Assembly: GCA_036339465.1 (NCBI GenBank) | Contig: JAYZAY010000095.1 | Span: 1 to 48,353 of the forward strand | Reading direction: 5' to 3' | Length of the DNA: 48,353 nt | DNA from: Myxococcota bacterium | GTDB lineage: Bacteria > Myxococcota > XYA12-FULL-58-9 > JABJBS01 | Part shown: piece by piece, positions 7,701-32,313 of the stretch | How the letters are laid out: every line of letters starts with the position of its first letter | Numbering within the stretch: position 1 is the stretch's first letter | Notes under the pieces: generated by a model | Database searches by the model: none | The model's input: only the letters and a program-made list of their open reading frames with translations | What the model was told of the DNA's origin: nothing | Translations under genes and position numbers: made by a program

Positions 7701-8901
7701 CCACAAGGATCCCTTCACTCGCAGCCTGCATCAATCTCGCGGCAAGATTTACCACATCGCCAATCACGGTATATTCTCGTCTAATTTCACCCCCGATAAC
7801 CCCGCAAAAAGCCCCCCCTGTGGTAACACCCGCAGCAAGCCGTAAACGAAGTTCTGAAAGTTTATTCTGGATCCCCATAGCAGCCCTTACGGCTCGCTCC
7901 CCTCCACCCTCCGCAATACGAGGCGGGATCCCCCAAACCGCAATGACCGACACCCCTTTGTCATCCACACTCAGTTTGTTGACCTCACCATCAAAGGAAT
8001 ACACAACATCTTGGACCAATTGAAAAACAGTTTGGTCCCGGTCCAGGGGTGCTCGCGAATGAATATCGGGTAAATTGAGGAAGAGAACACTAACCGAACG
8101 CAACTCGCCCATATACTGCAGCTGACGCGCATCGATCTTGTTTGTGACGGTCGGTGGCAAAAAAGATCGGAGCTTGGTCAACACCTCGCCGTTCAATTCT
8201 ATGGGATGGGTCACATGCTTGCGAACATTAAACTTCTTATCTCGAAGTAGATAGCACCCCGACGAAAGGGATTTCGCCACCACTCTTGTAGCAATGAGTT
8301 TAAATAGCTTGGGCGACAAAATTATATCACCAGGACTCGCACAACCCTCAGCAAAAACAGCATGCTCAAGTGCCTCACCTTTGATCAGAAATTCCCATTT
8401 TTCGTCAACACCACCCACATAAACTAAATCGAGATCACCCACGGCCAAACCCTGCTTAAACTTCAGGACTTCCCCTAACTTTTTCTCAAGAACCGCCTGT
8501 AATTTTGCAATGTTGGTGGCACATACAAGAACCAATTCGGCTGCTCGGTCCAAACTGGGGATCACCTCAGGACAAGGCCAAATCGCAACCAAGGCATCCC
8601 CGGCAAATTTAACCACCTCTCCACCAAATGAATCGATAATTTTTAGAAGCTCTTCATAATGCTGATTCAAAACCGTACTTATTTTCTCGGCTCCGACCGT
8701 CCCCTCGGCGGCCAACTTCTCTGTAAGGGCTGTGAATCCAGACATATCAAGAAAAAGGGTGCCCCCCTTTGTTCGAACTCTTTTGGGCTCTAGCTCTCGG
8801 TCAAGGGCCTCATGATAATAACGAACCACCGGAGGTGGTAAGAAACTCGCTATCTCCCGAAATACTTCGTCGGTCATGGAAACTGCCACTGTCCCAATCA
8901 A
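4765..8901 (-). CDS. Soluble adenylyl cyclase (ADCY10/sAC-like): tandem class III cyclase domains + STAND ATPase + TPR-like region
   Basis: FLDMSGFT and VKFAGDAL (C1); DDKG and EYTVIGDVVNLAARLM (C2); Walker A GDAGMGKS; IENLHWLD; GNPLF; FSHVLIRDAVY. Probable start at ATG 8877. Confidence 0.9.
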   Translation of the reverse strand: MIGTVAVSMTDEVFREIASFLPPPVVRYYHEALDRELEPKRVRTKGGTLFLDMSGFTALTEKLAAEGTVGAEKISTVLNQHYEELLKIIDSFGGEVVKFAGDALVAIWPCPEVIPSLDRAAELVLVCATNIAKLQAVLEKKLGEVLKFKQGLAVGDLDLVYVGGVDEKWEFLIKGEALEHAVFAEGCASPGDIILSPKLFKLIATRVVAKSLSSGCYLLRDKKFNVRKHVTHPIELNGEVLTKLRSFLPPTVTNKIDARQLQYMGELRSVSVLFLNLPDIHSRAPLDRDQTVFQLVQDVVYSFDGEVNKLSVDDKGVSVIAVWGIPPRIAEGGGERAVRAAMGIQNKLSELRLRLAAGVTTGGAFCGVIGGEIRREYTVIGDVVNLAARLMQAASEGILVDSTTHGLTLKNLTYERGQKLRVKGKSQPVEAFRLKGTSRSKRSSVARIFFVGRKEERGHIENDMSCIEQTEMCRVVLVRGDAGMGKSHLVAKSMQFARSKGISAYRIEISSFDTGSAFFAWQSILQDILSQSIQNTSMTMQSCVEHHLADGSELLDYVSVLNDVLGLEWPESALSKKLTGMSRTVKIAEVIGYLLTKLAASKKIVVVIENLHWLDGVSGELTADLMKQVKGVVFILNSRAVPLPPPRWFTRIYNHSRTKSFVLKPLNAGDCSELIGHCLGIKLVEDGLVDMVMDYSRGNPLFIKELTMSLEDRGLVKVQNGKLVVDEKLLDGFARMNVPNNIHSLIMSRLDSLSPARQLVLKTASVIGKTFTIRMLREVYPVLEDKPNVRQYLDALCSLGFLKQESNSGELNYSFSHVLIRDAVYESMLMEQRKWLHKVVAQWLNENTTKKTTAVLSSMAEHLLHAGEKRTACAFFEIAATKFLEAGAYDEAARQFRLAMPILEEMVEKKETPDLKLRLASGYRKWAETLLCLDQLNEARAKALTSIDIIGESRPVEILSRFRNFDGGRLEHYWLTAGRLLVGEEKGANLESIRGERALAAFVLAMIELLALDPKSARAYAFDSFLYSNHSSDVLERSKLLAVNGLVAGWLGKASEAQKFFQRAGEAHTDETKANSLIFCSMFEAENLLMEGNVEDSRKKIKDTMEVALVYADDRQIESLLSLSADVCYFSGQLPKSMGEADKLRKMAVRNRHLSFQLDALNQLLKIQLVVGGKRWSPRVYESYNRFLRDHKNTEGYFSSLVIRGNYQLMNGDMRKGIAHLHEALVWVEEYPMVGRVGGYACEKLADAYLHLYRRAFQEESAIQGSFRDCYLRTMGAMKKLKQRLVLFDPAYHLLLGRFYLVEQKLQGAAKQFKGAMELGRQMGVMPVEAQAMYHLANHSQLTDSLRRHYLQDAQQLFWRMGCRSTHKLITGELEAGP

Positions 8902-10302: not shown

Positions 10303-12537
10303 CTAATTCATCTGACTTACTTCTTTCTGACTTACTTCTTTGGCCACTGTTTTTTTCGCTGGTCTTTTCTTCAGTCGAAAGACCCGGGATTGTGGAAAGG
10401 TATTCAGCACCTCCTCGAATTTCTCAGAATCAAACCGCCCCAGCATGAAAAGTTGAGTGAAATTGGAACGATAAACAGTTTCATTCACAAGAAATGCATG
10501 ACTCAATTTCCGCGGACCAGTCTCAACCATCAAGAGAGTCTCCTTACTTTCATCGGAAGAAAAAATTCGTTCATCCACCACTTTCCCATGGCGAATCACA
10601 GTAATCCTCCGCAACCGGCTACCTGACTCAGTCTTCCCCACCGAAAGATGAAACTTCAACACACCACAATAAAGGATACCACCCGCTATCCGATTGCAGC
10701 CCAATGGTTTGAAACCCCGTGGCCTTGCGTTGGTTGAGCCACCTTCAGCCAGTGCAGCAATCGAGTGATATTTAAAAGCTAAATCCATAGACAAGTATAG
10801 GTAAAGGGGAATCTTGGCTGACTCGACCACTGGATCGAGAATCGCCTGCCATAAGGTTGTTCGCGACTGGCCATTGTCTTTGATGCCCTGTAGGCCGTCA
10901 CGGGCAAGGAAATTTGCGATGGCCACCAATTCACCGGGATCCGACGAAGAAAGCGCACTTGCCACCAAGGGGGTCTTCTCAGAAACCTGGGAACTCGGGT
11001 CGTGAAAGGTCGCTTTATCCGCGACTGTGGTCAGGGCCGCGCCATAATCCCACCATGCAAAGATGGCTGCGTCCTCGGGCAATAACGACGCCAACCGAGT
11101 AAAATCACGGAATCGCTGGGCATTAATATTAGGGAAAGGCATGTGCTTTAGGCTTTCTTGAGGCACCAATAAACCACCCAAAACAACGACAGTGAGAGAA
11201 AAAATGGACTGCCGGGCAGGACAAGACCAATCCCGACTCACCATGAACGAAAGAAAACCGAAATCTCTTCCCTTTAAAGTCTCCAATGCACCCATACCCA
11301 AACAAAACCAAAAACCAATCCCCATCCCCATGAAGGGGCCTAAATACATGGCAAACCTTCGGGAGGACTGGAATGTCATCAGTCCAAGGGCGAGCAAGGG
11401 AAGCCAAGGAACAGCCAAGCGGAATTGTGAAATACCGAAAATGACAAATCCCAAGAGTGAGAATAAAACCAATCCAGGAGAATCATGAACGCGCTTAAGA
11501 GCATTTCTCCATTCCAGTTTCTTCGTTTCCTGGATGGTCATATAGGTGTTATTAAACCGGGGCGCTTCATCGCCTATTCGGTCTTTTGGAAGTTTTGGTA
11601 TCCCTAAACGAAAACCCTCTTCTTCAGGTGGAGAATACGCATTGGCCTTGGCCTCGCTCACCAAGGAGGGAATCGCCCAATACTTTTGCAGGAAGTCTTG
11701 CACTGAACCACTGGCCACAAGAAAATTGCCCAAGGGGCACGCCAAGACAAAGACCAATCCGCTACCCACCACCTTTTTCAAGTTTTTTCCGTAAAGAGTG
11801 TAGGTCGTAACCAAGACGAGAAAATAAGCCAAGATAAACCCAGGGCGATTGTACCACCAAGTAAAGAGCCACATACTGCCACCAGCCAAAACCGCGTTAC
11901 CCAAAGTAGCCCATATCATTTTGCTACGGGCTCCCAAAAATATAAAAAGTGACGCCATACAGGGGAAAAACAGATTAAGCATATCCGTATCGATGCGCCC
12001 CATGGACGTTCTCAACAAATATTCCGGCGCGAAGGCTCCCATCATCCCTGAGAGCAATCCAACACCAGGGTATCCCGCCACATAGAAGTAGACCCCTAAG
12101 GGAATCATAAAAAGACTCGAAAATAAGAAAAGAAGTGCCGTTCCCGCCAGGTAAAAATCACCATCAAAATACGAAGCTGCCTTCGCAATAAGAAAACTCA
12201 ACAACGGTACTTTTGGTTGCTTATAGAATTCCCCCTCGGGAAAAAATGCCTTGGGGTTTTTCTGGGAATACCCCCCTACCTCATACTCCCTAGCCCACCT
12301 TACCCACAGAAAAGCATCGGCGGTGGAAACCATGGGCGTTTCCCCCACAAAGTGCGTTTCCGCTTTATCAGTCCACGCTAAATATTGTTGCTGCCGAATG
12401 GAAGTGGAGAAAAGCATCGCTAAGACGAGAAGCACGCCAAACAACCACGGAGAAATAACAAACTTCGGCGCAACCATCCTCTGATAGCCAGACCATATGC
12501 GTCTTAGGGCTTCCGCCATGGATTCCTTACCGTCCAT
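10303..12537 (-). CDS. pglB: STT3/PglB-family N-linked oligosaccharyltransferase
   Basis: Multi-TM protein with STADAF, GRIDTDML (DxD), TIQE, RRFAMY and WWDYG motifs. Alternative start ATG 12519. Confidence 0.9.
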   Translation of the reverse strand: MDGKESMAEALRRIWSGYQRMVAPKFVISPWLFGVLLVLAMLFSTSIRQQQYLAWTDKAETHFVGETPMVSTADAFLWVRWAREYEVGGYSQKNPKAFFPEGEFYKQPKVPLLSFLIAKAASYFDGDFYLAGTALLFLFSSLFMIPLGVYFYVAGYPGVGLLSGMMGAFAPEYLLRTSMGRIDTDMLNLFFPCMASLFIFLGARSKMIWATLGNAVLAGGSMWLFTWWYNRPGFILAYFLVLVTTYTLYGKNLKKVVGSGLVFVLACPLGNFLVASGSVQDFLQKYWAIPSLVSEAKANAYSPPEEEGFRLGIPKLPKDRIGDEAPRFNNTYMTIQETKKLEWRNALKRVHDSPGLVLFSLLGFVIFGISQFRLAVPWLPLLALGLMTFQSSRRFAMYLGPFMGMGIGFWFCLGMGALETLKGRDFGFLSFMVSRDWSCPARQSIFSLTVVVLGGLLVPQESLKHMPFPNINAQRFRDFTRLASLLPEDAAIFAWWDYGAALTTVADKATFHDPSSQVSEKTPLVASALSSSDPGELVAIANFLARDGLQGIKDNGQSRTTLWQAILDPVVESAKIPLYLYLSMDLAFKYHSIAALAEGGSTNARPRGFKPLGCNRIAGGILYCGVLKFHLSVGKTESGSRLRRITVIRHGKVVDERIFSSDESKETLLMVETGPRKLSHAFLVNETVYRSNFTQLFMLGRFDSEKFEEVLNTFPQSRVFRLKKRPAKKTVAKEVSQKEVSQMN

Positions 12538-13212: not shown

Positions 13213-14478
13213 TTAGACCTTTCTCAATTTGGCCGCATGCCGATGCCCCATCAGTCCTTCCCGTTCTGCCAACATCATCGTATCATCAATAACTTCTTCC
13301 GAAAGACAACCATCACTTCTCATCCACGTCCGGATCCGCAGAAAATTGTGAACCGAAAGCCCCCCGCTAAACCGTCCCACCCGCCCCGTCGGTAAAACAT
13401 GATTGGGGCCCGCCCCATAGTCACCAAAAACCTCAGCCGCCCCAGCCCCAATAAAAATAGCCCCATAATGCTTCAAAAGTGGAACCATTAACTTAGGTTC
13501 CCCGACCTGCACCTCGAGATGCTCGGGGACTGCTGCGTTGGCCACCGATGCAGCCTCCTCCAGACTACTAACCACCGCGCACCACCCATTCTTCAACGCC
13601 CCCCTCGCCACTTCCGACGTGGGTAAATCGGCCAACTGTTTATTCAATTCAACTTCCACCGCATCCGCCAGCTCCTCGTCCAAGGCAACTAAAAGAGGAA
13701 TGGCATCGGTGTCATGCTCTGCCTGCGCTAATAGGTCGGCCGCCACCAGCGCCGGTGAAGCGCTGGCATCAGCGATCACCAATAATTCAGACGGTCCCGC
13801 CAACATATCGATTGCCACCTCGCCTGCAACCAATTTTTTCGCGGCGGTCACATATCGATTGCCGGGGCCGACAATTATATCGCAAGGTTGAAGAACGCCT
13901 TCCACCCCCCACGTAAACGCACCAATCGCCTGGGCACCGCCAACAGCAATCACTGCGTCAACCCCCGCAACATGGGAAGCTCCCAAAGTGAGAAGTGTCG
14001 GTTTCGGAGAAGCAGCGTAAACACATTCAACACCGGCCGTTCGAGCTGTCACCGCAGTCATCAGCATCGTCGAAGGCAAGGGGAATCGACCACCCGGCAC
14101 ATAACAACCAGCAATTTCTAAAGGCACAATATCCTGGCCAGCGCGCCCCCCAGGAATATCCATGGCAAAGGGTCGAATACTACTCATTTGGCATCGAGCG
14201 AAATTCTCAATTCGCTCTTTTGTTCGAACAAGAAGTGCTTTTTCCGATTCATCCAAGGACTCAAAGACACGAGCCAACTCCACGGGACCAAGAATGAGTG
14301 AGCTCTCACCATCCCAATCCCCCAAGTTTCTTGCCCATCGCTCGAGAGCAGGCCGCCCCTCTGTTTTAATTTCTTTGAGGATCTCCGCAACCCGGGCCAA
14401 GGTATCCTCTTCAAGAGCCGCCGACACCTTTTTCTTTGCATTCTGCGACGAGCATCTTCGCAATAAGTGTTCCGCCAT
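13213..14478 (-). CDS. hisD: Histidinol dehydrogenase
   Basis: GCYVPGG, VGPGNRYV, IDMLAGPSE, DLLAQAEHD, PEHL, GDYGAGPNHVLPT; RBS AGGAG upstream. Confidence 0.97.
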   Translation of the reverse strand: MAEHLLRRCSSQNAKKKVSAALEEDTLARVAEILKEIKTEGRPALERWARNLGDWDGESSLILGPVELARVFESLDESEKALLVRTKERIENFARCQMSSIRPFAMDIPGGRAGQDIVPLEIAGCYVPGGRFPLPSTMLMTAVTARTAGVECVYAASPKPTLLTLGASHVAGVDAVIAVGGAQAIGAFTWGVEGVLQPCDIIVGPGNRYVTAAKKLVAGEVAIDMLAGPSELLVIADASASPALVAADLLAQAEHDTDAIPLLVALDEELADAVEVELNKQLADLPTSEVARGALKNGWCAVVSSLEEAASVANAAVPEHLEVQVGEPKLMVPLLKHYGAIFIGAGAAEVFGDYGAGPNHVLPTGRVGRFSGGLSVHNFLRIRTWMRSDGCLSEEVIDDTMMLAEREGLMGHRHAAKLRKV

Positions 14479-14496: not shown

Positions 14497-15771
14497 CTAA
14501 GTCTTAAGATACCCTGGTTTCGCATCACCACCACGTCGACTTACCTTACGACTGCGGCGATCAAGTTCACCGACCACATCCGAAAAAGAAATACCCTCAG
14601 CAGCCAATCGAACCATGGTAAAATAGAGCAAATCCGCCGCTTCATGTACGACATTCGATGTGCCTTCAGCCGCGACCAATTCATCCACTTCTTCGCGGAT
14701 CTTCGCCGCCAACAAATCAGGTTCTCGATACAATCGCGCCGTGTAAGACCCCTCAGGAGCGGTGGCCTTTCGGTTCAATAACGTCGATTCCAAGTATTTC
14801 AATCCCCGGCCCTCGTCCCAGCAAGAAAATCGTTCTAAATGACAAAATCCACGACCGGCCTGTTTCACCCGAAAAAGCAATGCGTCCGCATCACAATCAA
14901 GACGCACGTCCAAAAGTTCTTGAATGGCCCCCGAGGTAGAACCTTTACGCCAAATCTCTTTACGCGAACGACTATAATAGACACCAGTTCCCGTTTTGAG
15001 TGCCTCTTTCAAACTTTCGGCAGTGGAGTAAACCAAACCCAAAGCTCGGTCCCATTCATCCACCACCACTGTGGTAAAAAGTCCGTCAGCCCGGTCGGTG
15101 TTCAGCATCTCCGCGAGTACATCGGCCACATCAAAATGCCCTTTATAAAGAGCCATCCCCACCTGCGCATCGATGCCCATATCATGAAGCTTTGCAATTT
15201 CAGCTGGGGTAGCAATCCCCCCCGCCACCGTGAGCTGTGCCTCACCTGCAGCTTCTTTCAATTTCTGCACATGGTCAAAATCAATTCCCACCAATCGCCC
15301 CTCCCGCTCCACAAAGGTAACCAAGAACCCAAAAACGTAGGGGGAAAGCTCCCTCAAGCGATCGAGAACCGAAAGACCGGTTTTAGTCTTCCAACCATGC
15401 ACCACGACCTCGCCGTCCACGCCGTCCAAAGCCGCAATGAGGCGACCCTTAGGAAGTTGTTGCAAAAGTTCAGGTTTGGCAGCGGTTCCCAAAATGATTT
15501 TAGATGCTCCACGGTCAAGCCAATTCATGGCTTTTTCATAGGAACGAATGCCACCTCCTACCCGACAGGGCGCCACCTTAAGAAGGGCGTTGATAACCTC
15601 TGTGTTATCGCCATGGCCCATTGCGGCATCTAAATCGATCACAGCGACTTCACCCGTTCGCCCAAAATTCCGCGCGAGAGGCACCGGATCACCGGCATTG
15701 ATTTCGAGCTTTTTGCCACCAATCAGCTGAACCGCATTACCATTTTGAATATCCACCGAAGGTATGATCAT
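14497..15771 (-). CDS. hisAIE: Trifunctional HisA-HisI-HisE fusion
   Basis: HisA barrel (IIPSVDI, VIDLDAA, VGGGIR, ILGTAA, VAGGI); HisI (YYSRSR..W.KG.TSG, DCDADAL, CH...SC); HisE (SYT, KIREE..E, HEAADLLY). ATGA overlap with hisF. Confidence 0.93.
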   Translation of the reverse strand: MIIPSVDIQNGNAVQLIGGKKLEINAGDPVPLARNFGRTGEVAVIDLDAAMGHGDNTEVINALLKVAPCRVGGGIRSYEKAMNWLDRGASKIILGTAAKPELLQQLPKGRLIAALDGVDGEVVVHGWKTKTGLSVLDRLRELSPYVFGFLVTFVEREGRLVGIDFDHVQKLKEAAGEAQLTVAGGIATPAEIAKLHDMGIDAQVGMALYKGHFDVADVLAEMLNTDRADGLFTTVVVDEWDRALGLVYSTAESLKEALKTGTGVYYSRSRKEIWRKGSTSGAIQELLDVRLDCDADALLFRVKQAGRGFCHLERFSCWDEGRGLKYLESTLLNRKATAPEGSYTARLYREPDLLAAKIREEVDELVAAEGTSNVVHEAADLLYFTMVRLAAEGISFSDVVGELDRRSRKVSRRGGDAKPGYLKT

Positions 15772-16526
15772 AATCTGACCTCGCCGCCCAATTCTCGAAG
15801 TTCTTTTTTCAGCCGATCCACGGTATAATCCCCATCATGAAAAATAGACGCTGCCAACACAGCATCCACCCCCACATCAATCGCATCTTTCATGTGTTGA
15901 GGTGAGTTAGCTCCACCGGATGCAATAATGGGAATACCCACCACCGCACGAATCGCCGTGAGCATCTTCAAATCATAACCAGAGCGGGTGCCATCTCGGT
16001 CCCAACTGGTAAGAAGAATTTCACCGCAACCACGTTCCTGGGCTTCTCGAGCCCAATCCGTGGCTTTTTTGGGTAACCTTTCGGTACCCGATCGAACAAT
16101 CACTTCCCAACTACCTAGGTCGTTGTTCCAAGCCGCATCGATGGCTAAAATCGTGCATTGAGAACCAAACTGCTTGGCCATCTCATCGATTATCAAAGGA
16201 TTGATGACTGCCGCGGTATTGACACTCACCTTATCTGCACCCGCATCGAGAAGCCTAGAAGCGTCCTCTAACCTGCGCACCCCTCCTCCACAGGTCAGTG
16301 GGATCCGAAGTCTCTTCCGGACAGCTTTCACCGTGTCGACCTGATGCCCACGCCCTTCAGGAGTGGCGGATACATCGAGGATGATAAGTTCGTCAGCACC
16401 CTGCTTCTCGTAAGCCTTCGACAATTCCACAGGATTGCCCGCATCACGTAGATTTTGGAATTGCACCCCCTTCACCACTCGACCATCGCGACAATCCAAA
16501 CAAGGAATAATTCGTGTGGTCAACAT
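15768..16526 (-). CDS. hisF: Imidazole glycerol phosphate synthase, cyclase subunit
   Basis: RIIPCLD, VVKG, GADEL, GGGVR, GADKVSVNTAA, GEILLTS.DRDGT, IIASGG, LAASIFH. Start reassigned to ATG 16526 (TGATG overlap with hisH). Confidence 0.97.
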   Translation of the reverse strand: MLTTRIIPCLDCRDGRVVKGVQFQNLRDAGNPVELSKAYEKQGADELIILDVSATPEGRGHQVDTVKAVRKRLRIPLTCGGGVRRLEDASRLLDAGADKVSVNTAAVINPLIIDEMAKQFGSQCTILAIDAAWNNDLGSWEVIVRSGTERLPKKATDWAREAQERGCGEILLTSWDRDGTRSGYDLKMLTAIRAVVGIPIIASGGANSPQHMKDAIDVGVDAVLAASIFHDGDYTVDRLKKELRELGGEVRL

Positions 16527-17134
16527 CAAGCCACCCCCAAACCGAGCCAACGCTTTAAAAGAGTTTCGCCCCATTCCCCCGACAGTTCCGGGTGGAATTG
16601 ACAAATCAACTGAGGTCCTCGTTCCATAGCCGCAACGTATTCACCACCATAGTCAAACGTCGCCACGTCCCAACCAACCACCGTCGCTCCAAAGGCATAG
16701 GAGTTGGCAAAATAAGCATAGCCATCCCTAATATATCGATGGTTTGGGGACGAAATAACCTTATTCCAGCCAATCTGGGGCACCGAATAAGTATCAGGTA
16801 AGCGAATGACAGGCCCAGCAACCACCCCCAACCCCTCGGAACCTGGAGATTCTTCACTTTCCTGTCCAGCAAGTTGCATACCCAAGCAAATACTAAGCAG
16901 CGGCTTACCCACCGAAAACCGCTCTCTGAGTGGTGAAACCAGTGCCCGCTTCTCCAAACCTTCCATGCAGGCACCAAAACTACCCACTCCAGGTAGGACA
17001 AGGTAGTCCGAATCCAGGATTTCCTCTTCGACCTCGATCACTTTCCAACCGACATTTAGCCTTTCAAACGCAGCACACACCGAAGCCAAATTGGCCAATC
17101 CCGTTCGTAGAATAGAGACAAAAGGGACACTCAT
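16526..17134 (-). CDS. hisH: Imidazole glycerol phosphate synthase, glutaminase subunit
   Basis: LPGVG, ICLGMQ (catalytic Cys), PQIGWN, YFANSY, QFHPE. Confidence 0.96.
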   Translation of the reverse strand: MSVPFVSILRTGLANLASVCAAFERLNVGWKVIEVEEEILDSDYLVLPGVGSFGACMEGLEKRALVSPLRERFSVGKPLLSICLGMQLAGQESEESPGSEGLGVVAGPVIRLPDTYSVPQIGWNKVISSPNHRYIRDGYAYFANSYAFGATVVGWDVATFDYGGEYVAAMERGPQLICQFHPELSGEWGETLLKRWLGLGVA

Positions 17135-17724
17135 ACAAGCACTCCCTTAGTGCTTGGGACATCTTTTGATCGAGAATCGAGACCGACCGCCCCCCTCAAT
17201 GCCAGCGCGACCGCCTTGAAGGCTGCCTCTGAAATATGGTGGTCATTTTCGCCCTTTATTTGGTCGACGTGTAAACAAAGACGGCCCGCCATGGCCATAG
17301 ACTGAAAGAAGTGAGGTATGTTTTCGGTCGCCAAGTCGCCCAATTTTTCCCTTCGAAAACAAAGCTCGATGCTTGGATGCGGCCGACCAGAAAGATCCAC
17401 AACCGCTCTTACCAGTGCTTCGTCCAGCGGCGCATAAGCACTAAAAAATCGTCGAATACCCTTTCGTTCTCCGAGCGCCTCATTCACCGCGCTCCCAAGC
17501 GCCAATGCACAATCTTCAACCGTGTGATGATCATCAATTTCAATATCACCCTTACAATGTAGCTTCAGATCGATTTTACTGTGTTTTGATAAAGCCCCCA
17601 GCATATGGTCCAAAAAGGGAATCCCTGTATCGATATCGCCTTTGCCCGCACCATCTAGGTCAAGTTCACAAACAATATCGGTCTCCGATGTTGTTCTATT
17701 TACGCTCGCACTTCTCATACTCAT
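17131..17724 (-). CDS. hisB: Imidazoleglycerol-phosphate dehydratase (monofunctional)
   Basis: RTTSET, FLDHML, DDHHTVED, DLSGRP, NDHHISEAAFK, PSTKG; no N-terminal phosphatase domain. ATG 17724 fits the GAGGAG RBS. Confidence 0.97.
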   Translation of the reverse strand: MSMRSASVNRTTSETDIVCELDLDGAGKGDIDTGIPFLDHMLGALSKHSKIDLKLHCKGDIEIDDHHTVEDCALALGSAVNEALGERKGIRRFFSAYAPLDEALVRAVVDLSGRPHPSIELCFRREKLGDLATENIPHFFQSMAMAGRLCLHVDQIKGENDHHISEAAFKAVALALRGAVGLDSRSKDVPSTKGVLV

Positions 17725-19457
17725 ACCCATAGCTCCTCTAATTCAGCCACGTGGTTCAAAACCGCTGCCGCACCTGCCCCAAAAAGGAGGGACTGCTTCA
17801 ACGCAACATTTTCACCAGGAGCCACCACCCCAATGGGGATGACTCTCGCCTCAGACGCCGCCACCAAATCATCGACCGTATCGCCCAACATCCAAGCTCT
17901 CTTGATGGAGAGTTTTTCCAAAGCCAGCAAAACAGGATCAGGGCTCGGCTTCGGGGCCGCATCCTCCATACAAACCGAAATCTCCAAAAGGGAACCAAGG
18001 TCAAAGTGTTCCAAAGTACGTTCGGCGTCCAATCGTGGCCGGCCGGTAACCACCGCCAAAGAGTACCGTTTTTTTAAGGCAACGAGCCATTCGCGTTCTA
18101 CCATCAAGGTCTCATTTCGCCACAACCCTGGCTGCTCTTCAGTACCATGATAAAACGCTTCAAATTTGTGTCGAACCTCCTCAAAACAGACTTCGGTTCC
18201 TTTGGCCAAAATCAATCGATGCGTCACATCCCAGTCGTTGTTGGCGTTACCCTCAGCCTTAATCGTGGCGATATCCTCAAGTGAAATATTCACCCCAAAA
18301 CAAGCCCCTGTTTGAATCATTGCTTGCCTATAAGATCCACTAACATCCACCAAAACGCCGTCCATATCGAAAAGGATACCTTCCGGCGAAAACACGGTTC
18401 TAAGGGAGCGGTCCAACCGTTTCATTAAATCATCTCGTCCAGGACACGAAATTCGCAGAGCTCGGTCGAGGCGCTCATTGTTGCTAAAAGCACGTAGCCC
18501 TATCCCCAATGCCTCCATCCCTCGCTGAACAAATTCTCTATTCTCAAAATAGCCTAAAACAAAATTCGCCTGAGATTCTGGCGTTTTGAAATTGAACTCT
18601 CGCAAACACGATTGTAATTGGCGCCGCTGATTCCGGATCGTCTCGATATACGCGTCTGTGGTTTCTTTCGCTTCCCGTAGCCACAACTTCCCCAAAGAGA
18701 GAGAGACCTGTGACACCGAATACGGACCACTTGCCGCCCGCATCCAGTCAATGACCTCGACACCACCCAAAGCATACCCCAACCTTAAGCCCGGGAGTCC
18801 CCATGCCTTGGAAAAAGTGCGCATCACGACAATGTTGGGAGTGCCCAAAAAATCCTTCGTTGGATCATTATCCGCAAACTCCACATAGGCAAAATCCACA
18901 AGCCATAAAATGCCCGGGTATTTCTCAGCCATGGTGATGATCTTCCTCGGCTCCACCACCTGACCCGTTGGATTGTTAGGAGAAACAATGGTGACCAACC
19001 CCACCGAATCATCGAGAGACTTTTCCAATTCCTCCCACGGAAAAGCCCCATCCCAAAGGACCGAACATAGTTCAGCACCGGTCATTCGAGCATATTGCGG
19101 AATCATCTCAAAAGTTGGAATCGGCATCACCAACTTGCGACCACCCCATAAAACGGCACGACAAGCCCGCTCAATCCCTTCATCAGCCCCCGCAGTCACT
19201 AAAACCTTGTCTGCACCAATACCAAAATGCTCTCCCAAGGCACTTTCGAGCTCACCGGCCTTGGGGTAACGAACCACATTGGACAACTCAATTTCAGCCA
19301 AGCCCCGTCGAAGTAGCGTTTTCTCAGCGTCACTCAAGGTCGCCCGCTCGGTGTTTCCAAGTGGAAGGTCGATTTTTCCACCCATGGGGGGGATTTTATA
19401 GCCACTCTTTCCCACAAACGCAGGATTCCCTTGAAGTTTGGCCGGGGACACTTCCAT
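17721..19457 (-). CDS. hisC: Histidinol-phosphate aminotransferase fused to a C-terminal HAD hydrolase (TIGR01548-like, putative histidinol-phosphatase)
   Basis: SPNNPTG, D.AYVEF, RTFSKAWGLPGLRLGY (PLP Lys), SQANF; then FDMDGVLVD, VTGRP, KP, GDTVDD from about 18390 downward. Confidence 0.92.
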   Translation of the reverse strand: MEVSPAKLQGNPAFVGKSGYKIPPMGGKIDLPLGNTERATLSDAEKTLLRRGLAEIELSNVVRYPKAGELESALGEHFGIGADKVLVTAGADEGIERACRAVLWGGRKLVMPIPTFEMIPQYARMTGAELCSVLWDGAFPWEELEKSLDDSVGLVTIVSPNNPTGQVVEPRKIITMAEKYPGILWLVDFAYVEFADNDPTKDFLGTPNIVVMRTFSKAWGLPGLRLGYALGGVEVIDWMRAASGPYSVSQVSLSLGKLWLREAKETTDAYIETIRNQRRQLQSCLREFNFKTPESQANFVLGYFENREFVQRGMEALGIGLRAFSNNERLDRALRISCPGRDDLMKRLDRSLRTVFSPEGILFDMDGVLVDVSGSYRQAMIQTGACFGVNISLEDIATIKAEGNANNDWDVTHRLILAKGTEVCFEEVRHKFEAFYHGTEEQPGLWRNETLMVEREWLVALKKRYSLAVVTGRPRLDAERTLEHFDLGSLLEISVCMEDAAPKPSPDPVLLALEKLSIKRAWMLGDTVDDLVAASEARVIPIGVVAPGENVALKQSLLFGAGAAAVLNHVAELEELWV

Positions 19458-19468
19458 ATCCAATCTCC

Positions 19469-20344
19469 TTAGGGAATGAGCTGAGAGATTCTTGAAACCG
19501 CAATGTCGGTCCCTCCCAAGGACTTAATCTTGGGAATAACTTCAGGAAGAATGGCCCTCGGAACCGCCGCTTTCACCGCAAACCCCGAATTATCCCGTAA
19601 ATGAGACACCGTGGCCCCTCGCATGCAAGGCATTGCATCCACCACCGCATCGAGAAATTCGTTCGCCACATTTACTTCCACCATCACACGGCGGCGGCCC
19701 TCAATCGCCGAACCTAAGAGCATGGCGAATTGGTCGATAAGTGCTCGTTTTTTGGGATTCTCATAAGCCCTCCGGTTGGCAAAAAGTCGGGTTGATGAAC
19801 GCATCACTTCGTGAACAATCGCCAAATTATTTGCCCCCAAAGTAGCGCCGGTGGCCGTATTATCGACGATACAATCTGCATCTTCCGGTGGGAAAACCTC
19901 TGTCGCTCCATAGGAACGAACAAACCGAGCATTGAGCCCCTCCTCAGCAATCCATTTTTCAGTGAGTGTTTGATACTCAGAAGCAATCAACAATTCCTGA
20001 TTGGGCAGGTGGCCATCTACCAAAATATCATGGGGAGCAGCAGCAACAACCCTCACAGGGTCCATGCCCGTATCGAGAATTTCCACCAAATCCACCTGGA
20101 GTTCACAAACCCAGTCGTATCCCGCAAACCCAAGATCTCTTGAGCCCACATCTAACATCTCGACAACGTTTTGTGGTTTTAGGATCTTGACCTCGGTATC
20201 CGGGAAGTTGATGCTTGGTCGATACCCTCGCTCCGTTCCCTTCAATAGGATCCCCGCGTCTTCCATGAGCTTCACGATCCCCTCGTGCATACGCCCCTTT
20301 GGCAAGCCTAGCTTTAAGCTATGTCGATTCTCTCCTATGAACAT
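19469..20344 (-). CDS. hisG: ATP phosphoribosyltransferase, long form
   Basis: LPKGR, DLGFAGYD, YGATE, ADCIVD.TATG.TL..N.L, plus C-terminal regulatory domain. GGAGG RBS 6 nt before ATG 20344. Confidence 0.96.
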   Translation of the reverse strand: MFIGENRHSLKLGLPKGRMHEGIVKLMEDAGILLKGTERGYRPSINFPDTEVKILKPQNVVEMLDVGSRDLGFAGYDWVCELQVDLVEILDTGMDPVRVVAAAPHDILVDGHLPNQELLIASEYQTLTEKWIAEEGLNARFVRSYGATEVFPPEDADCIVDNTATGATLGANNLAIVHEVMRSSTRLFANRRAYENPKKRALIDQFAMLLGSAIEGRRRVMVEVNVANEFLDAVVDAMPCMRGATVSHLRDNSGFAVKAAVPRAILPEVIPKIKSLGGTDIAVSRISQLIP

Positions 20345-20579
20345 CACCATCCTCCAAGTAGGCACATTTCCCAAATGTTTTAGCTACCTTAAATCGACTT
20401 TCTTTGAGATGAAAGAGACCGACTCAAATTTGCTGGCTTTGGGATGAGTGAGTGGTACGCGATAACTCCCCCGAAAAACCGATAGTGTGACGATGAGGTA
20501 GAACGACGCTTGGCCATACGCAAACGATTCAGTTCTCGAAGAAGATTGCCCACCCCTAGGATAAACCCTTCGCAGTTAG

Positions 20580-22196
20580 ATGCCGGCGGAGTATAGAATA
20601 CAAATGACAAGGATGACCCAAAAAACGCTTTCATACGCCCACGTGGCTGCGGGCCATCCGGAAACCTGCAGAGCAGCCTGTGAAGTTTATGAAGCCGGCG
20701 GTAACGCCATCGATGCAACTCTCGCAGCGATGACCACTGCATTTGCCGTCGAGCCCTTGTTAACGAGCCCCTTCGGGGGGGGCATCATGCAATTGCACGA
20801 ACCGGGACAAAGGGTGCCTCAAACACTACCCATGTTTGCCAGCGTACCCTCGAAGACATTTTCTTCCCGCACCGATTTCCACCCCATCACTGTTTCCTTT
20901 GGAGCCGCCGACCAAGAATTTTATTGTGGCAAGGGCTCTGTCGCTGTGTCTCACCTCCTCCAAGGACTCCTAGATATCCATGCAGAAAAAGGGAATTTAT
21001 CACGAAAACAGGCCTTAGAACCCGCAGTAAAAAGAGCAAAAGATGGTCAAATTCTAACGCCGGCTCTCTCAAACATACTTCAAATCCTAACACCCATTCT
21101 CACCATGACCACACAAGGACGCTCCATCTACGCCCCACGGGGTTCCATCTTAAGGACCGGAGATCGACTCCTACTGCCAGAGCTTGAAAAATTCATTCGT
21201 GAACTCCAATCGCCTAAAACCTCGGGAGAAAACCTCCTATACCAACATTTTGCGGCTCCAGACGGTCTCATCGGTGAATCCGATTGCCGGACTCAGAAGT
21301 TGGTGCACCAGCAAAGCTATAGCGTAAAACTCGATGCCTTCGAGATATTCCTTCCTTCCTACCCGTCCATCGGAGGTATTCTCATCACTTTTGGCCTGGA
21401 ACTCCTGCGAAGGCTCCAACAAGAGATCTCAAAGCGACTCTCGATCACCCAATTGCATATTGGCGTCATGGCGACCACTCAATATTTCAGACAAAAAGAG
21501 ATCATTCCCCGATTGAAATTCGACCCCAATTCATTCGAAGAGACGGACCTTTTAGAGACAATAGATTGGGGCTTCTACCTTAACTGGACACACAATTGGC
21601 TCAAAAATCCCCACCCCCTCATGCACGACCCTCCGTCCTTCGGAGAAACCACCCACCTAAGTATTGTGGACTCCAATGACTGGATGGTCTCCATCACTTC
21701 CAGCAATGGAGAGGGCTGCGGCCATATCATCCCCGGCACCTCCCTTTTCGCGAATAATTTCTTGGGAGAGCAAGATCTTCACCCATTTGGGTTTCATCAA
21801 TATCCTCAGAAAACCCGACTCAATACCATGATGTCTCCGTGTCTCGTGTTTAAGGCAGATAAACCCTTTGCAGTCCTCGGCACGGGGGGCAGCAATCGGA
21901 TCCGCACCGTGCTCCTCCAGGTACTCTCAAGAATAATTTACCAAAAAATCGGCCTCACCCAAGCGGTCGAGGCTCCCCGCCTTCATTTTGAAGGTGGTCC
22001 CATTTACTATGAAGCCACCGGTCCTGACTCACCTCTAAGCCCGGAGGATGAAAAGATAATTTGTCATTTTGGCCTAGAAACTGTTCGCTTCGAAAAACCG
22101 AATATGTTTTTTGGTGGCGTCCATGCCACTTCCTCTACCGGTGAAGTCATTGGAGATCCACGCCGTGGCGGGGCTGCAAAGAGTCTATTGCTCTAA
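20580..22196 (+). CDS. ggt: Gamma-glutamyltransferase family protein
   Basis: GGNAIDA, TTHLSIVD (autocleavage Thr), NNFLGE, GTGGSNRIR, APRLH, FFGGVH, GDPRRGG. Start may be 20604 or 20613. Confidence 0.9.
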   Translation: MPAEYRIQMTRMTQKTLSYAHVAAGHPETCRAACEVYEAGGNAIDATLAAMTTAFAVEPLLTSPFGGGIMQLHEPGQRVPQTLPMFASVPSKTFSSRTDFHPITVSFGAADQEFYCGKGSVAVSHLLQGLLDIHAEKGNLSRKQALEPAVKRAKDGQILTPALSNILQILTPILTMTTQGRSIYAPRGSILRTGDRLLLPELEKFIRELQSPKTSGENLLYQHFAAPDGLIGESDCRTQKLVHQQSYSVKLDAFEIFLPSYPSIGGILITFGLELLRRLQQEISKRLSITQLHIGVMATTQYFRQKEIIPRLKFDPNSFEETDLLETIDWGFYLNWTHNWLKNPHPLMHDPPSFGETTHLSIVDSNDWMVSITSSNGEGCGHIIPGTSLFANNFLGEQDLHPFGFHQYPQKTRLNTMMSPCLVFKADKPFAVLGTGGSNRIRTVLLQVLSRIIYQKIGLTQAVEAPRLHFEGGPIYYEATGPDSPLSPEDEKIICHFGLETVRFEKPNMFFGGVHATSSTGEVIGDPRRGGAAKSLLL

Positions 22197-22959: not shown

Positions 22960-23763
22960 CTATCGAAGTGAATGAAGCATAGAATGCCGTGGAACCGATA
23001 TAATATTCCTGCATTGTTGGCAGGCATAATAATCCACTCCGCCAGTCTCCTGTTTCCAAGGAACAAATTGATTGCATGAAGTGCAGCGTTCGGTGCTTCT
23101 GATGTTATGGCCAACAAACTTTTGAAACTGCCTTTGATTCCTAGATACTTGCTCGAATTTTTCCCTATCCTCGATTCGAAAAATTAAGAGCGGCATATCC
23201 ATCAACAATGCACCATAATTAAGAAAAAGACGCCCCAGGCAACCATTCCCACCGATAAACGGAGAAATATTCTCAAATCGAAAATAGAGCGGGGTCATAA
23301 ACTGAACAAAAACTTTGGGTCTTTCGAAGGTAGGTGCAAGCATGCCCTGCAATGACGCATGATTCATGTCTCGGATCCAGGAGTTTAGTGCACCGCGAAC
23401 ATCCTCTGCGGGTAGATAACCATGTTTCGGATCTGAATAGTCAACGTCCTCGCTTCTAAACTTTCCAACGCCACTTGGGTCGCATGCAAAACCATACTCT
23501 TTATGTTCGTTGACAATCTGTTTTTGCCATTTGGGAATATCATCGAGTTCGAGTGGCTGACGCCCTTTGGCAAGTAACTTTAGCTGGGTCAAGACACCCG
23601 CATAGCCAATATTGGGATTCGGTTCACCTAGAGCCTCGTAGGGTATGGTTGGAATATTGCGAAAACGCTGGATTCCCTTACGCGCTCTCACCAAAGGAGA
23701 CTCAAGAAACTTTAGTCGAGTACTCTCCGTCAAAAACTCAAGTTCGCGTTGTGCCAACGACAT
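22960..23763 (-). CDS. Fic/Doc-domain protein with degenerate motif and C-terminal zinc ribbon
   Basis: GKFRSEDV; FENISPFIGGNGCLGRL in place of HPFxxGNGRxxR; CTSC...CQQC. Confidence 0.8.
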   Translation of the reverse strand: MSLAQRELEFLTESTRLKFLESPLVRARKGIQRFRNIPTIPYEALGEPNPNIGYAGVLTQLKLLAKGRQPLELDDIPKWQKQIVNEHKEYGFACDPSGVGKFRSEDVDYSDPKHGYLPAEDVRGALNSWIRDMNHASLQGMLAPTFERPKVFVQFMTPLYFRFENISPFIGGNGCLGRLFLNYGALLMDMPLLIFRIEDREKFEQVSRNQRQFQKFVGHNIRSTERCTSCNQFVPWKQETGGVDYYACQQCRNIISVPRHSMLHSLR

Positions 23764-32308: not shown

Positions 32309-32313
32309 ACAAA

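Follow-up and report, generated by a model that had tools for sequence, protein, structure and literature searches.

The histidinol phosphatase (HolPase) step is the one most often missing or unassigned when histidine or other amino-acid synthesis is read from genomes: the portion of the GapMind 2026 report used here gives hisN as missing in 42 of 208 prototrophs, and such gaps lead to false predictions of auxotrophy. For Synechococcus elongatus, hisN counted as a "novel" gap in 2020; under hisN, the GapMind 2020 supplements have two methanogen rows only. One described system lies particularly close to the locus considered here. Nitrosopumilus maritimus has a HAD gene between hisC and hisB, Nmar_1556, whose product is nmHisN (Kinateder et al., 2024; PMC10804674). 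According to the sections of that paper drawn on here, nmHisN acts on histidinol phosphate in vitro with a kcat of 0.79 per s and a KM of 73 uM, hydrolysed none of 9 other phosphoesters tested, and is marked by a fingerprint of four residues (Y24, D25, K56 and E64); the D25A substitution cut kcat/KM about 220-fold. The same sections describe a Y-R-K-D pattern in Euryarchaeota and in 22 mostly delta-proteobacterial sequences, the latter termed "likely HolPases"; Arg replaces D25 in cluster II and in the delta-proteobacterial clusters, where the authors rate the assignment as less reliable (PMC10804674). In the literature searched we found no description of a HisC-HAD fusion or of a link between the TIGR01548 family and HolPase, cyanobacteria included. 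Here we describe a gene that, judging from its sequence and setting, quite probably specifies a bifunctional enzyme of histidine synthesis, responsible for both step 7 and step 8.

A fused gene in the his operon

The window (the whole 48,353-nucleotide stretch of DNA that was analysed) comes from a marine bacterium. It contains a his operon in the order hisG-[hisC-HAD]-hisB(dehydratase only)-hisH-hisF-[hisA-hisIE]-hisD, and all features given below lie on the minus strand. The operon begins with a long-form hisG with a C-terminal regulatory domain (19469..20374; PF01634 and PF08029, TIGR00070 and TIGR03455), and an Rfam gathering scan of the window returned no match and so no known leader or riboswitch before hisG. 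After the fused gene comes hisB (17131..17730), which the initial annotation had read as dehydratase-only. That reading holds: the 199 aa IGP dehydratase has PF00475 as its sole Pfam domain, scores best with monofunctional HisB models, and covers no more of the bifunctional HisB model than positions 165-355. Further along are hisH (16526..17134; PF00117 and operon position, with tblastn matches in related operons), hisF (15768..16604; PF00977, E 5e-77; start codon uncertain, the ORF overlapping hisH), a fused hisA-hisI-hisE of 424 aa (14497..15771; PF00977, PF01502 and PF01503 in one ORF) and hisD (13213..14478; PF00815; TIGR00069, 389 bits). Pfam and NCBIfam scans of hisG, hisB, hisH, hisF, hisA-hisIE and hisD found no phosphatase, in agreement with the earlier statement that the operon has no other.

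The open frame of the fused gene spans 17721..19463 (580 aa counted from TTG 19463). With a GGAGA ribosome-binding site 6 nt 5' of an internal ATG at 19457, the likely gene is 17721..19457 (578 aa), the start and extent originally proposed; the 578-aa form is also present in a public protein collection (P0002). Residue numbers used here are those of the 580-aa translation (P0001), and those of the 578-aa protein are lower by 2. The ribosome-binding site sits within the hisG stop region, and the TGA stop (17721-17723) overlaps the hisB start. Contig cover from single runs is absent over parts of the gene, a gap that carries no weight as evidence. Pfam and NCBIfam matches place both domains in one ORF, as first annotated: a HisC-like PLP aminotransferase is followed in a single frame by a linker of about 18 residues (18378..18431; aa 345-362, DLMKRLDRSLRTVFSPEG) and a HAD domain. 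The ESM Atlas model of the whole protein has a pTM of 0.85 and a pLDDT of 0.89.

The window belongs to a 102-contig, 92.8%-complete genome from low-depth marine data, a setting in which an assembly error or a frameshift might join two separate genes. However, contigs from runs of two separate studies show 0 differences over 18340-18730 and 18303-18506; each spans the junction, including the point near 18390 at which the initial annotation had suggested a check of reads, and no indel in the fused gene was seen across the four runs compared. Of the best 120 database matches, the 119 besides this protein all have the same architecture, and in 26 named genome records a single ORF runs across both domains. 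The fusion is not an artefact, and the chance of an error that would mimic all of this is negligible.

The HAD domain compared with known phosphatases

The TIGR01548-type HAD phosphatase domain occupies 17847..18377 (aa 363-539), and its fold continues to about aa 578. A profile search of this part gives TIGR01548 (HAD-SF-IA-hyp1), the family suspected at the outset, at 148.6 bits on the protein and 151.8 on the genome (cut-off 140.2; model positions 3-197 of 197), and Pfam places PF00702/PF13419 at aa 362-543 (E 2e-15). Models for HisB-N (TIGR01261), PHP HisJ (TIGR01856) and IMPase HisN (TIGR02067) have no match on the fused protein. The four HAD motifs reported earlier are all found in the translation: motif I, DMDGV 366-370 (18354..18368), in which by family rule Asp366 would be the nucleophile and Asp368 the acid/base, both Asp being invariant; and, from the sequence and alignments, motif II, VTGRP 472-476 with Thr473 (18036..18050), motif III, Lys505-Pro506 (17946..17951), and motif IV, GDTVDD 527-532 with Asp528, Asp531 and Asp532 (17868..17885). 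The superfamily pattern (DxD; S/T; K; (G)DxxxD) is complete, the motifs are invariant in alignments A1 and A2, and the catalytic residues of both domains do not change among 40 fusions with 36-50% identity. In the AF2 model of the domain (pLDDT 94.3), a C1 helical cap lies between motifs I and II: helices 24-34, 41-49, 56-66, 73-85, 93-96 and 103-110 (domain numbering) precede the motif II strand. A Foldseek search of this model against the PDB gives TM 0.66-0.77 to generic HAD-IA phosphatases, beta-phosphoglucomutase-like proteins and a pyrophosphatase, neighbours that, as far as the modelled fold goes, are uninformative on substrate.

In the cap, S377-Y378-R379 (18327..18335) match Y24 and D25 of nmHisN, with Arg in the place of Asp; Y378 is invariant in A1, nearly so in A2, and corresponds in alignment to the S-Y-D Tyr of nmHisN-like proteins and of the solved structure 6iah. 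Lys402 (18258..18260), nearly invariant here and R in 6iah, matches K56, and the NNDW at 408-411 (18231..18242) puts Asp410 at the place of E64 in nmHisN and D64 in toHisN, with D410 and W411 invariant. The 8 residues from Lys402 to D410 equal the spacing from K56 to E64 in nmHisN. At the fingerprint and accessory places the domain reads V374, Y378, R379, M382, I398, K402 and D410, which gives it the Y-R-K-D pattern described above: it has the Tyr at 24 (Y378), the Lys/Arg at 56 with an acid at 64 (K402, D410) and the hydrophobic residues at accessory 28 and 52 (M382, I398) that characterize nmHisN and toHisN, and it departs from them at 25, where R379 replaces Asp.

Beyond these residues and their spacing, the window domain shares with nmHisN a HAD core, one helical cap that is inserted behind motif I, and a gene position between hisC and hisB, and nmHisN-like proteins match TIGR01548 end to end. 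In a Thermoproteota sample, 20 of 29 loci have a full-length TIGR01548 match (59-94 bits) in the order hisD-hisC-HAD-hisB-hisH, and 4 of 18 extracted proteins read V20-Y24-D25-I28-I52-K56-E64. There are differences too: nmHisN-like proteins have only 20-26% identity to the window domain, and nmHisN itself has nine cap helices (about six in the window-domain model), D25 rather than Arg, and the form of a free monomer rather than a fusion to HisC.

By sequence, the best solved structure is 6iah_A (240 aa, deposited as "Hydrolase"; profile E 4e-26), which we take to be a Thermococcus thioreducens phosphatase; by fold, other HAD-IA structures rank above it (Foldseek). Its S-Y-D and R-x(7)-D correspond to the Y-D-R-D pattern reported for toHisN of Thermococcus onnurineus in the sections used (PMC10804674), and it differs from the window domain in being a free-standing archaeal protein with Asp after the Tyr where the window has Arg. 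Two bacterial systems can be compared as well. E. coli HisB (HisNB) is likewise a step-8 HAD phosphatase fused to another histidine enzyme within a his operon, but it belongs to HAD subfamily IIIA (TIGR01261), which the window domain does not match, its phosphatase is N-terminal, and its partner, IGPD, catalyses the non-adjacent step 6. The SerB-like HAD-IB enzymes (paHisN, PA0335; NF052360) are another case of a HAD enzyme recruited to the same reaction (Price 2018; Kinateder et al., 2024), yet their cap, fingerprint and subfamily differ and their models do not match the window domain.

Gene neighbourhoods and other fusions across phyla

Eighty loci from named genome records were probed with the His proteins of the window, and HAD matches of 85 bits or more were counted as strong (59 loci). 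In 52 of the 59, from many phyla, the HAD adjoins his genes: in 26 it and a HisC-like domain form a single ORF with hisB next in line, in 23 it is a separate gene between hisC and hisB, in 2 it stands beside other his genes, and in 1 locus the 5' end is cut and hisB follows the HAD. The other 7, three of them from Bathyarchaeia, are without a his neighbour and count against a HolPase role. Among the weaker matches, 18 of 21 loci lack a nearby his gene; the other 3 are HADs truncated by contig ends behind his genes.

A fusion census of the best 150 cluster representatives from 1.84 billion proteins gave HisC+HAD in 121 and the HAD alone in 25, several of the latter being fragments. Two are HAD+IGPD proteins in which Pfam calls both domains (P0356 and P0359), a TIGR01548-type parallel to E. 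coli HisB; one is HisD+HAD+IGPD and one is HisA+HisIE+HisD+HisC+HAD. A Phytophthora protein (P0177) was considered as a further HAD+IGPD fusion and set aside: Pfam makes no IGPD call on its 38-residue tail, which BLASTP (a single comparison) aligns to the window HisB with 39% identity over 38 residues (E 4e-06). TIGR01548 family members are also named from Roizmanbacteria and Nanoarchaeota, an occurrence that may speak against the HolPase reading.

Co-occurrence with hisD and the question of substrate

In the window's own genome (92.8% complete) no PHP HisJ was found; the HisB-N-like matches score 62.8 and 40.5 bits, one of them being GmhB, and the IMPase matches reach 125 and 124 bits where the cut-off is 275; the best matches to these models are all below cut-off and lie away from the fused gene. 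Among 41 related genomes, which are not independent of one another and, as MAGs, incomplete, hisD is present in 22 and the fusion in 5, all five hisD-positive, and in these five no other HolPase type was found. Of the other 17 hisD-positive relatives, 13 have a HisB-N, HisJ or HisN-like match of at least 215 bits, 1 has a 174-bit match and 3 (72-88% complete) have none, where HisN-like and HisJ matches are imperfect markers that occur in hisD-less genomes too. Unrelated fusion genomes from Longimicrobiales, Planctomycetota and Gastranaerophilales likewise had none of the three HolPase types. Around the Gastranaerophilales genome, a sample of its phylum has a TIGR01548 member in 26 of 29 hisD-positive and 0 of 52 hisD-negative genomes; of the 3 hisD-positive genomes without one, 2 have the top two HisN-like scores in that sample. 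One Bryobacterales genome counts against the pattern: its his operon contains a HAD that is not fused, and the genome also encodes a HisJ-family protein over the cut-off.

The HAD domain could instead act on another substrate (for example a sugar phosphate, phosphoglycolate or vitamin-B6 phosphate), leaving step 8 to a generic IMPase or to one of two proteins encoded elsewhere in the genome, the C38 GmhB-like HAD-IIIA protein or the C73 HAD-IB protein. The replacement of the fingerprint Asp25 by Arg would fit such a reading, as would the generic HAD-IA phosphatases and pyrophosphatases that are closest by fold, and HolPase activity arises in many families, according to the part of the source used (PMC13759103). 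Both candidate proteins also have some profile support: the HAD-IIIA protein is over the TIGR01656 domain cut-off, and the HAD-IB protein (TIGR01490), the sole HAD-IB relative in the genome, scores 113 bits on NF052360, the Pseudomonas-type model. However, that model has a cut-off of 280 bits, and the HAD-IB protein adjoins recN and has N-S-G at the place of the D16-x-D18 fingerprint of paHisN; the HAD-IIIA gene adjoins an acyl-CoA dehydrogenase gene, and GmhB itself is another protein, C62 (170 bits, cut-off 149.6). In addition, the HAD occurs together with his operons and with hisD in many phyla, and fusions join it to three different his enzymes; the homologue that has been assayed acts specifically on histidinol phosphate, according to the sections of its report used here (PMC10804674). 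We regard a different substrate as unlikely.

The aminotransferase half

A second doubt concerns the other end of the protein. The HisC-like class I/II aminotransferase domain (18432..19289; aa 59-344; PF00155, E 7e-40) scores 195.4 bits on TIGR01141 (hisC), under the NCBIfam cut-off of 276.55, and nearly as well on the CobD model (168 bits). A second hisC, of the canonical type, lies elsewhere in the genome, in a pheA-hisC-aroA cluster (contig C33; 361.6 bits on TIGR01141); its product has 27% identity to the fused domain and could do step 7. This complicates the bifunctional reading, and two other genomes (G012 and G022) likewise retain a canonical hisC. The fused half might then be a diverged paralogue that acts on another substrate or is mainly structural, for example in phosphatase dimerisation. 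Several observations argue against this. The canonical copy is in an aromatic-pathway setting, with pheA and aroA on either side, whereas the fused gene takes the place of hisC within the his operon, flanked by hisG and hisB, both here and in 26 loci. Fused orthologues score 182-275 bits on TIGR01141, and in two fusion genomes no other HisC candidate comes near the fused gene: 233 bits (next 134) in the Planctomycetota genome and 275 (next 153) in the Gastranaerophilales genome.

The residues of the domain point the same way. The PLP lysine, SPNNPTG, D-x-x-Y, S-K and certain arginines are cofactor or substrate positions in the HisC family. The fused half has SPNNPTG at 161-167, DFAY at 190-193 and SK at 218-219, and N164, Y193, S218, K219, R227, R324 and R337 do not vary among 40 fusions. 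Lys219 (18807..18809; TFSKAWGL motif), the predicted PLP Schiff-base lysine by its family role, is aligned to SK in the canonical HisC of this genome and is invariant in 40 of 40 fusions. The domain thus resembles canonical HisC in fold, PLP lysine, SPNNPTG and D-x-x-Y motifs and operon position, and differs from it in its score below the equivalog cut-off, its low identity to the HisC of its own genome and the C-terminal phosphatase that has been added. A fused half that is not a working HisC seems to us improbable.

A proposed enzyme for two consecutive steps

The bifunctional reading is the one we favour. We infer the HolPase activity, including that of the Y-R-K-D variant, because five independent lines lead to it: gene neighbourhood, the IGPD and HisD fusions, the absence of other HolPase types, co-occurrence with hisD, and homology together with the fingerprint. 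The same lines support the initial proposal of a histidinol phosphatase, within an enzyme that would catalyse two consecutive steps. In step 7, the N-terminal PLP domain (Lys219) would convert imidazole-acetol phosphate and glutamate to L-histidinol phosphate; in step 8, the C-terminal HAD domain would strip the phosphate by the usual HAD mechanism, with Asp366 forming the aspartyl-phosphate and Asp368 as the acid/base. Motifs I and IV would hold Mg2+, Thr473 and Lys505 would bind the phosphate, and the helical cap (Tyr378, Arg379, Lys402, Asp410) may set the choice of substrate. Histidinol would then go to HisD. With the HAD counted as HisN, hisG-hisCN-hisB-hisH-hisF-hisAIE-hisD would cover every pathway step. 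The fusion gives equal amounts and proximity of both activities, and channelling between the two sites is a possibility.

The initial annotation also saw in this protein a function for a TIGR01548-like family, and part of that is new. The HolPase activity of a distant homologue and the prediction for delta-proteobacterial relatives are already known, from the sections used of Kinateder et al. (2024; PMC10804674). What is added is that a family named merely "TIGR01548 family HAD-type hydrolase" in NCBIfam is now tied to the HolPase step, because of three different gene fusions, a conserved operon position and co-occurrence with hisD, and that it also connects to one assayed archaeal enzyme. If the Y-R-K-D activity is true, several hundred protein clusters could be renamed, including HisC fusions labelled "aminotransferase" or "HAD hydrolase", and the cyanobacterial hisN gap would have a candidate. 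We think it reasonably likely that the TIGR01548 clade with the Y-R-K-D cap is a major unrecognised HolPase in cyanobacteria, haloarchaea, Acidobacteriota, Planctomycetota, Myxococcota and Gemmatimonadota, that it would close a substantial part of the hisN gaps (seen in about 20% of the prototrophs in the portion of GapMind 2026 used), and that the fused form would hand histidinol phosphate directly from the PLP to the HAD site. The HisC-HisN fusion would be a natural system for tests of channelling between consecutive steps. It also puts hisC among the his genes known to fuse: a 2007 survey of his fusions had five, with hisC in none of them.

Gene, domains and motifs

The aminotransferase and the HAD phosphatase domain share one open frame on the minus strand, from a TTG at 19463 to the stop codon at 17721-17723. 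The stop region of the upstream hisG contains a GGAGA motif 6 nt ahead of the ATG at 19457; the fusion gene therefore most likely spans 17721-19457 (minus strand), the coordinates given in the initial annotation, and would encode 578 aa. A public protein collection holds exactly this form (P0002). Residues are numbered here on the 580-aa translation from the TTG (P0001); 2 is subtracted for the 578-aa protein. In Pfam, aa 59-344 match the class I/II aminotransferases (E 7e-40) and aa 362-543 the HAD hydrolases (E 2e-15). The initial annotation had described both domains in one frame, and the open frame, ribosome-binding site, public protein and Pfam matches bear it out. The HMM search it had proposed for the HAD part assigns this part to NCBIfam family TIGR01548 (148.6 bits against a curated cut-off of 140.2). 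For the N-terminal part the top NCBIfam model is hisC TIGR01141 (195 bits, under its cut-off of 276.55), followed by CobD (168 bits).

The four HAD motifs claimed for the protein are all there: DMDGV (366-370), VTGRP (472-476), KP (505-506) and GDTVDD (527-532). The aminotransferase hallmarks SPNNPTG, DFAY and the pair S218-K219 are also found. Across 40 aligned fusions the predicted catalytic residues are invariant, namely N164, Y193, S218, K219, R227, R324 and R337 in the aminotransferase half and D366, D368, T473, K505, D528, D531 and D532 in the HAD half. The whole-protein ESM Atlas model has pTM 0.85 and pLDDT 0.89; for the HAD domain by itself, AF2 gave pLDDT 94.3.

Near-identical copies of this stretch of the window occur in marine or seawater metagenome runs of ten studies. 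Contigs from two runs of different studies cover 18340-18730 and 18303-18506 with 0 differences, and both span the junction at 18378-18431; no indels were seen in the four runs compared, and the window may derive from one of these. Both domains also recur in each of the other 119 of the best 120 homologues (43-51% identical, 554-629 aa). The proposed check across the junction thus found it bridged without difference or indel in two studies, and the bridging contigs together with the two-domain homologues rule out an assembly artefact as the origin of the fusion. The source labels of fused proteins read “TIGR01548 family HAD-type hydrolase”, “aminotransferase class I/II-fold...” or “histidinol-phosphate aminotransferase”.

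The his operon

The his genes are tightly packed, all on the minus strand, in the order hisG, fusion, hisB, hisH, hisF, hisA-hisI-hisE and hisD. hisG is of the long form with a regulatory C-terminal domain. The stop codon of the fusion overlaps the start of hisB, which at 199 aa holds the IGP dehydratase (IGPD) domain only, and hisA-hisI-hisE is a single fused gene (14497-15771, minus strand; 424 aa; PF00977, PF01502 and PF01503). It had been stated that hisB is dehydratase-only and that the operon has no other phosphatase, and both points stand; with this gene content, the operon supplies all pathway steps but the histidinol-phosphate phosphatase (HolPase), unless the HAD domain provides it. 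Divergent from hisG lies a gamma-glutamyltranspeptidase-family gene (20580-22196, plus strand; PF01019, E 1e-45), and the 205-nt gap between the two gave 0 Rfam matches.

Gene neighbourhood and other fusions of the HAD domain

One genome per species was scanned with a HAD-domain alignment, and the resulting 80 loci from named records were probed by tblastn with the window's own His proteins, a strong HAD match being 85 bits or more. Among the 59 strong loci, 26 encode the HAD and a HisC-like domain in one stop-to-stop frame with hisB next; the carriers belong to Myxococcota/Polyangia, Planctomycetota (including Brocadiaceae and Phycisphaerales), Gemmatimonadota, an acidobacterial Sulfomarinibacteraceae, Aminicenantes, Microgenomates and Gastranaerophilales. 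Another 23, all Acidobacteriota and mostly Bryobacterales, carry the HAD as its own gene between hisC and hisB. In two it adjoins other his genes (HAD-hisB in a Methanosarcinales MAG, and hisIE-HAD-hisH), and one is cut at the contig start with hisB next. The remaining seven, from three Bathyarchaeia, one Rhodothermales, one Melainabacteria and two Acidobacteriota (one of the latter on a 2.6-kb contig), lack a his neighbour. Of the 21 weaker loci, three are truncated at contig ends behind his genes; the remaining 18 hold other HADs that lack his genes in their vicinity and can be used as an approximate negative control.

A search without word index over 1.84 billion cluster representatives gave 241 clusters at E 1e-30 or better, and the best 150 were sorted by BLASTP with the window's His proteins. 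HisC+HAD accounts for 121 of these 150, and HAD alone for 25 (several being N-terminally cut fragments). The rest are HAD+IGPD in two (P0356 and P0359; 464 and 466 aa), HisD+HAD+IGPD in one (P0362, 802 aa) and HisA+HisIE+HisD+HisC+HAD in one (P0289, 1501 aa); Pfam confirmed the domain calls of these four, some of which could stem from metagenome gene-calling errors. The HAD+IGPD forms would fit the older description of TIGR01548, in which several members are reported to have been labelled IGP dehydratase.

Likeness to an assayed archaeal phosphatase

Nmar_1556 (nmHisN) is a formerly uncharacterised hydrolase gene between hisC and hisB of Nitrosopumilus maritimus (Kinateder et al., 2024, PMC10804674). 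Its product acts on histidinol phosphate with a kcat of 0.79 per s and a KM of 73 uM and was inactive on all nine other phosphoesters tested; an alanine scan gave the fingerprint Y24, D25, K56 and E64, with I28 and I52 as accessory residues (PMC10804674). The Thermococcus counterpart, toHisN, reads Y-D-R-D, and Y-R-K-D marks one cluster of Euryarchaeota as well as 22 mostly delta-proteobacterial sequences in two small clusters, which the authors called “likely HolPases” at lower certainty because of the Arg (PMC10804674). A term search of the main text and supplement of that paper found neither “aminotransferase” nor “fusion” with HisC.

As a direct test of the link, 121 genomes of the phylum of the Bathyarchaeota MAG were searched. 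A TIGR01548 match at E 1e-12 or better in 27 of them gave 29 loci, 20 of which have the order hisC-HAD-hisB, mostly with hisD before and hisH after. The HADs of these 20 are about 305-311 aa long, with full-length TIGR01548 matches of 59-94 bits. Eighteen were extracted and numbered with the first motif-I Asp as residue 12: four read V20-Y24-D25-I28-I52-K56-E64, in most of the others the K and E positions are displaced by one residue and the rest agrees, and some carry N25 together with R and D, within an NNDW motif resembling the one in the window. Almost the entire window HAD can be aligned with the nmHisN-like proteins, at 20-26% identity, and it has V374, Y378, R379, M382, I398, K402 and D410 at the corresponding places. 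The Lys-to-acid spacing of 8 is common to both, and the window HAD shows the Y-R-K-D pattern. Among solved structures, 6iah_A is the best sequence match (family profile, E 4e-26; single sequence, E 3e-10) and has S-Y-D and R-x(7)-D at these places.

Other phosphatase types and co-occurrence with hisD

The HolPases in print are of the HisB-N, PHP, IMPase-like and SerB-like HAD-IB kinds, with the archaeal nmHisN and toHisN besides. The window's own genome (4.17 Mb, 102 contigs, 92.8% complete) yielded no PHP-type HisJ, and its IMPase matches, at 125 and 124 bits, stay below the cut-off of 275. Two proteins match HisB-N under its cut-off of 140 bits (62.8 and 40.5); the higher is GmhB (TIGR00213, 170 bits, cut-off 149.6) and the lower a GmhB-like HAD-IIIA protein adjoining an acyl-CoA dehydrogenase. 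A HAD-IB protein on contig C73 reaches the TIGR01490 cut-off but scores only 113 bits on NF052360 (Pseudomonas-type histidinol-phosphatase, cut-off 280), adjoins recN and has N-S-G in place of the D16-x-D18 fingerprint of the Pseudomonas enzyme paHisN.

Counts across genomes are given without statistics because related genomes are not independent. In a set of 41 (the window's own genome, G000, and 40 relatives), hisD occurs in 22, and a full-length TIGR01548 match in a 558-600-aa frame in five (G000, G001, G002, G012 and G022, the last at 130 bits). Each of the five has hisD, and no other HolPase type was found in any of them. The 17 hisD-positive genomes without the fusion include two with HisB-N over cut-off, two with HisJ over cut-off, nine with a HisN-like protein of 215-304 bits (only one over cut-off), one with a 174-bit match, and three (72-88% complete) without any HolPase type. 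The HisN-like marker is imperfect, since a genome lacking hisD (G025) has a 220-bit match. HisJ, HisB-N over cut-off and high-scoring HisN were likewise absent from three other fusion carriers, of the Longimicrobiales, Planctomycetota and Gastranaerophilales. A Bryobacterales genome with an unfused HAD in its his operon also has a HisJ-family protein (175 bits), which is either redundant or a PHP protein of different function.

A second sample comprised 81 genomes of the phylum holding the Gastranaerophilales MAG, which we take to be Cyanobacteriota in GTDB. Of the 29 with hisD, 26 have a TIGR01548 member (25 free-standing, 193-284 bits, and the fused one), against 0 of the 52 without hisD. 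Among the remaining three with hisD, G188 and G233 have the sample's two highest HisN-like scores (250 and 260 bits), and G190 has none of the four HolPase types. All 11 HisJ-family matches fall in hisD-less genomes, and HisB-N over cut-off occurs in 0 of the 81. The named controls Synechococcus elongatus and Haloferax volcanii have TIGR01548 members over cut-off.

A probable bifunctional enzyme

G000 has a second, canonical hisC on contig C33 (12603-13649; 1486-2580, minus strand, in the extracted locus L012), with 361.6 bits on TIGR01141. This raises the possibility of a division of labour, in which the two proteins may serve different ends. The canonical copy is flanked by pheA (chorismate mutase/prephenate dehydratase) and aroA, and hisC copies in such settings are usually read as aromatic or dual-purpose aminotransferases, as this one probably is. 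The fused gene ranks first for TIGR01141 in the genomes of the Planctomycetota and Gastranaerophilales carriers (233 and 275 bits, the next best being 134 and 153). From the invariant PLP residues, the operon position and this ranking in two carriers, we regard the fused half as a functional HisC.

The fusion protein is probably a bifunctional HisC/HisN, in which channelling between the two steps is a possibility. The proposal of one enzyme for two consecutive steps gains support from the neighbourhood, the other fusions, the missing alternatives, the co-occurrence with hisD and the likeness to nmHisN; that of a HolPase function for TIGR01548-type HADs, from the his neighbourhood, the fusions and the hisD pattern (26/29 versus 0/52).

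What is new is the fused form with a Y-R-K-D cap; the enzyme kind itself has been known since 2008 and 2024. A 2007 survey of his fusions lists five, with hisC not among them in its main text, and the part of it covered names hisIE yet gives no hisA-hisIE fusion (PMC1963479). GapMind recorded hisN of S. elongatus as a “novel” gap in 2020 (PMC7311316) and hisN as still missing in 42 of 208 prototrophs in 2026, with no mention of HAD or cyanobacteria in the part of that text covered (PMC13759103). No description of a HisC-HAD fusion, or of TIGR01548 as a HolPase, was found in the literature searched, subscription journals being outside its scope.

Evolution of the fusion

A quick maximum-likelihood tree of 65 HAD domains assigns the window HAD to a clade that has 99% SH-aLRT support. 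Its 22 rows are all fused forms; L033, the sole exception by label, is cut at its 5' end. The clade mixes Planctomycetota, Myxococcota, Gemmatimonadota and one acidobacterium, and hisA-hisIE is fused in one ORF in all 19 scorable operons that also have hisC-HAD; this intermixing and the shared second fusion suggest that a compact operon of the hisC-HAD plus hisA-hisIE type moved between phyla. The fused forms of Aminicenantes, Microgenomates and Gastranaerophilales fall outside the clade. Because the well-supported branches require at least three changes between fused and unfused labels, fusion or fission probably happened more than once.

Other genes of the window

A 744-aa multi-pass membrane protein (10303-12537, minus strand) has a weak match to the STT3 oligosaccharyltransferase N-terminus (PF02516, E 2.6e-06), which hints at protein glycosylation in this bacterium. 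Pfam gave no match for the ORFs at 418-1680 and 1683-2771, or for the 215-aa and 367-aa ORFs flanking a gene for a 267-aa Fic/DOC-family protein (22960-23763, minus strand; PF02661, E 4e-08). An adenylate/guanylate cyclase domain and an AAA_16 ATPase domain occur together in a 1378-aa protein (4765-8901, minus strand), and two neighbouring genes for AMP-binding (adenylate-forming) enzymes (1002 and 570 aa; 29300-34026, minus strand) adjoin an arginine decarboxylase gene (34158-36068, plus strand).
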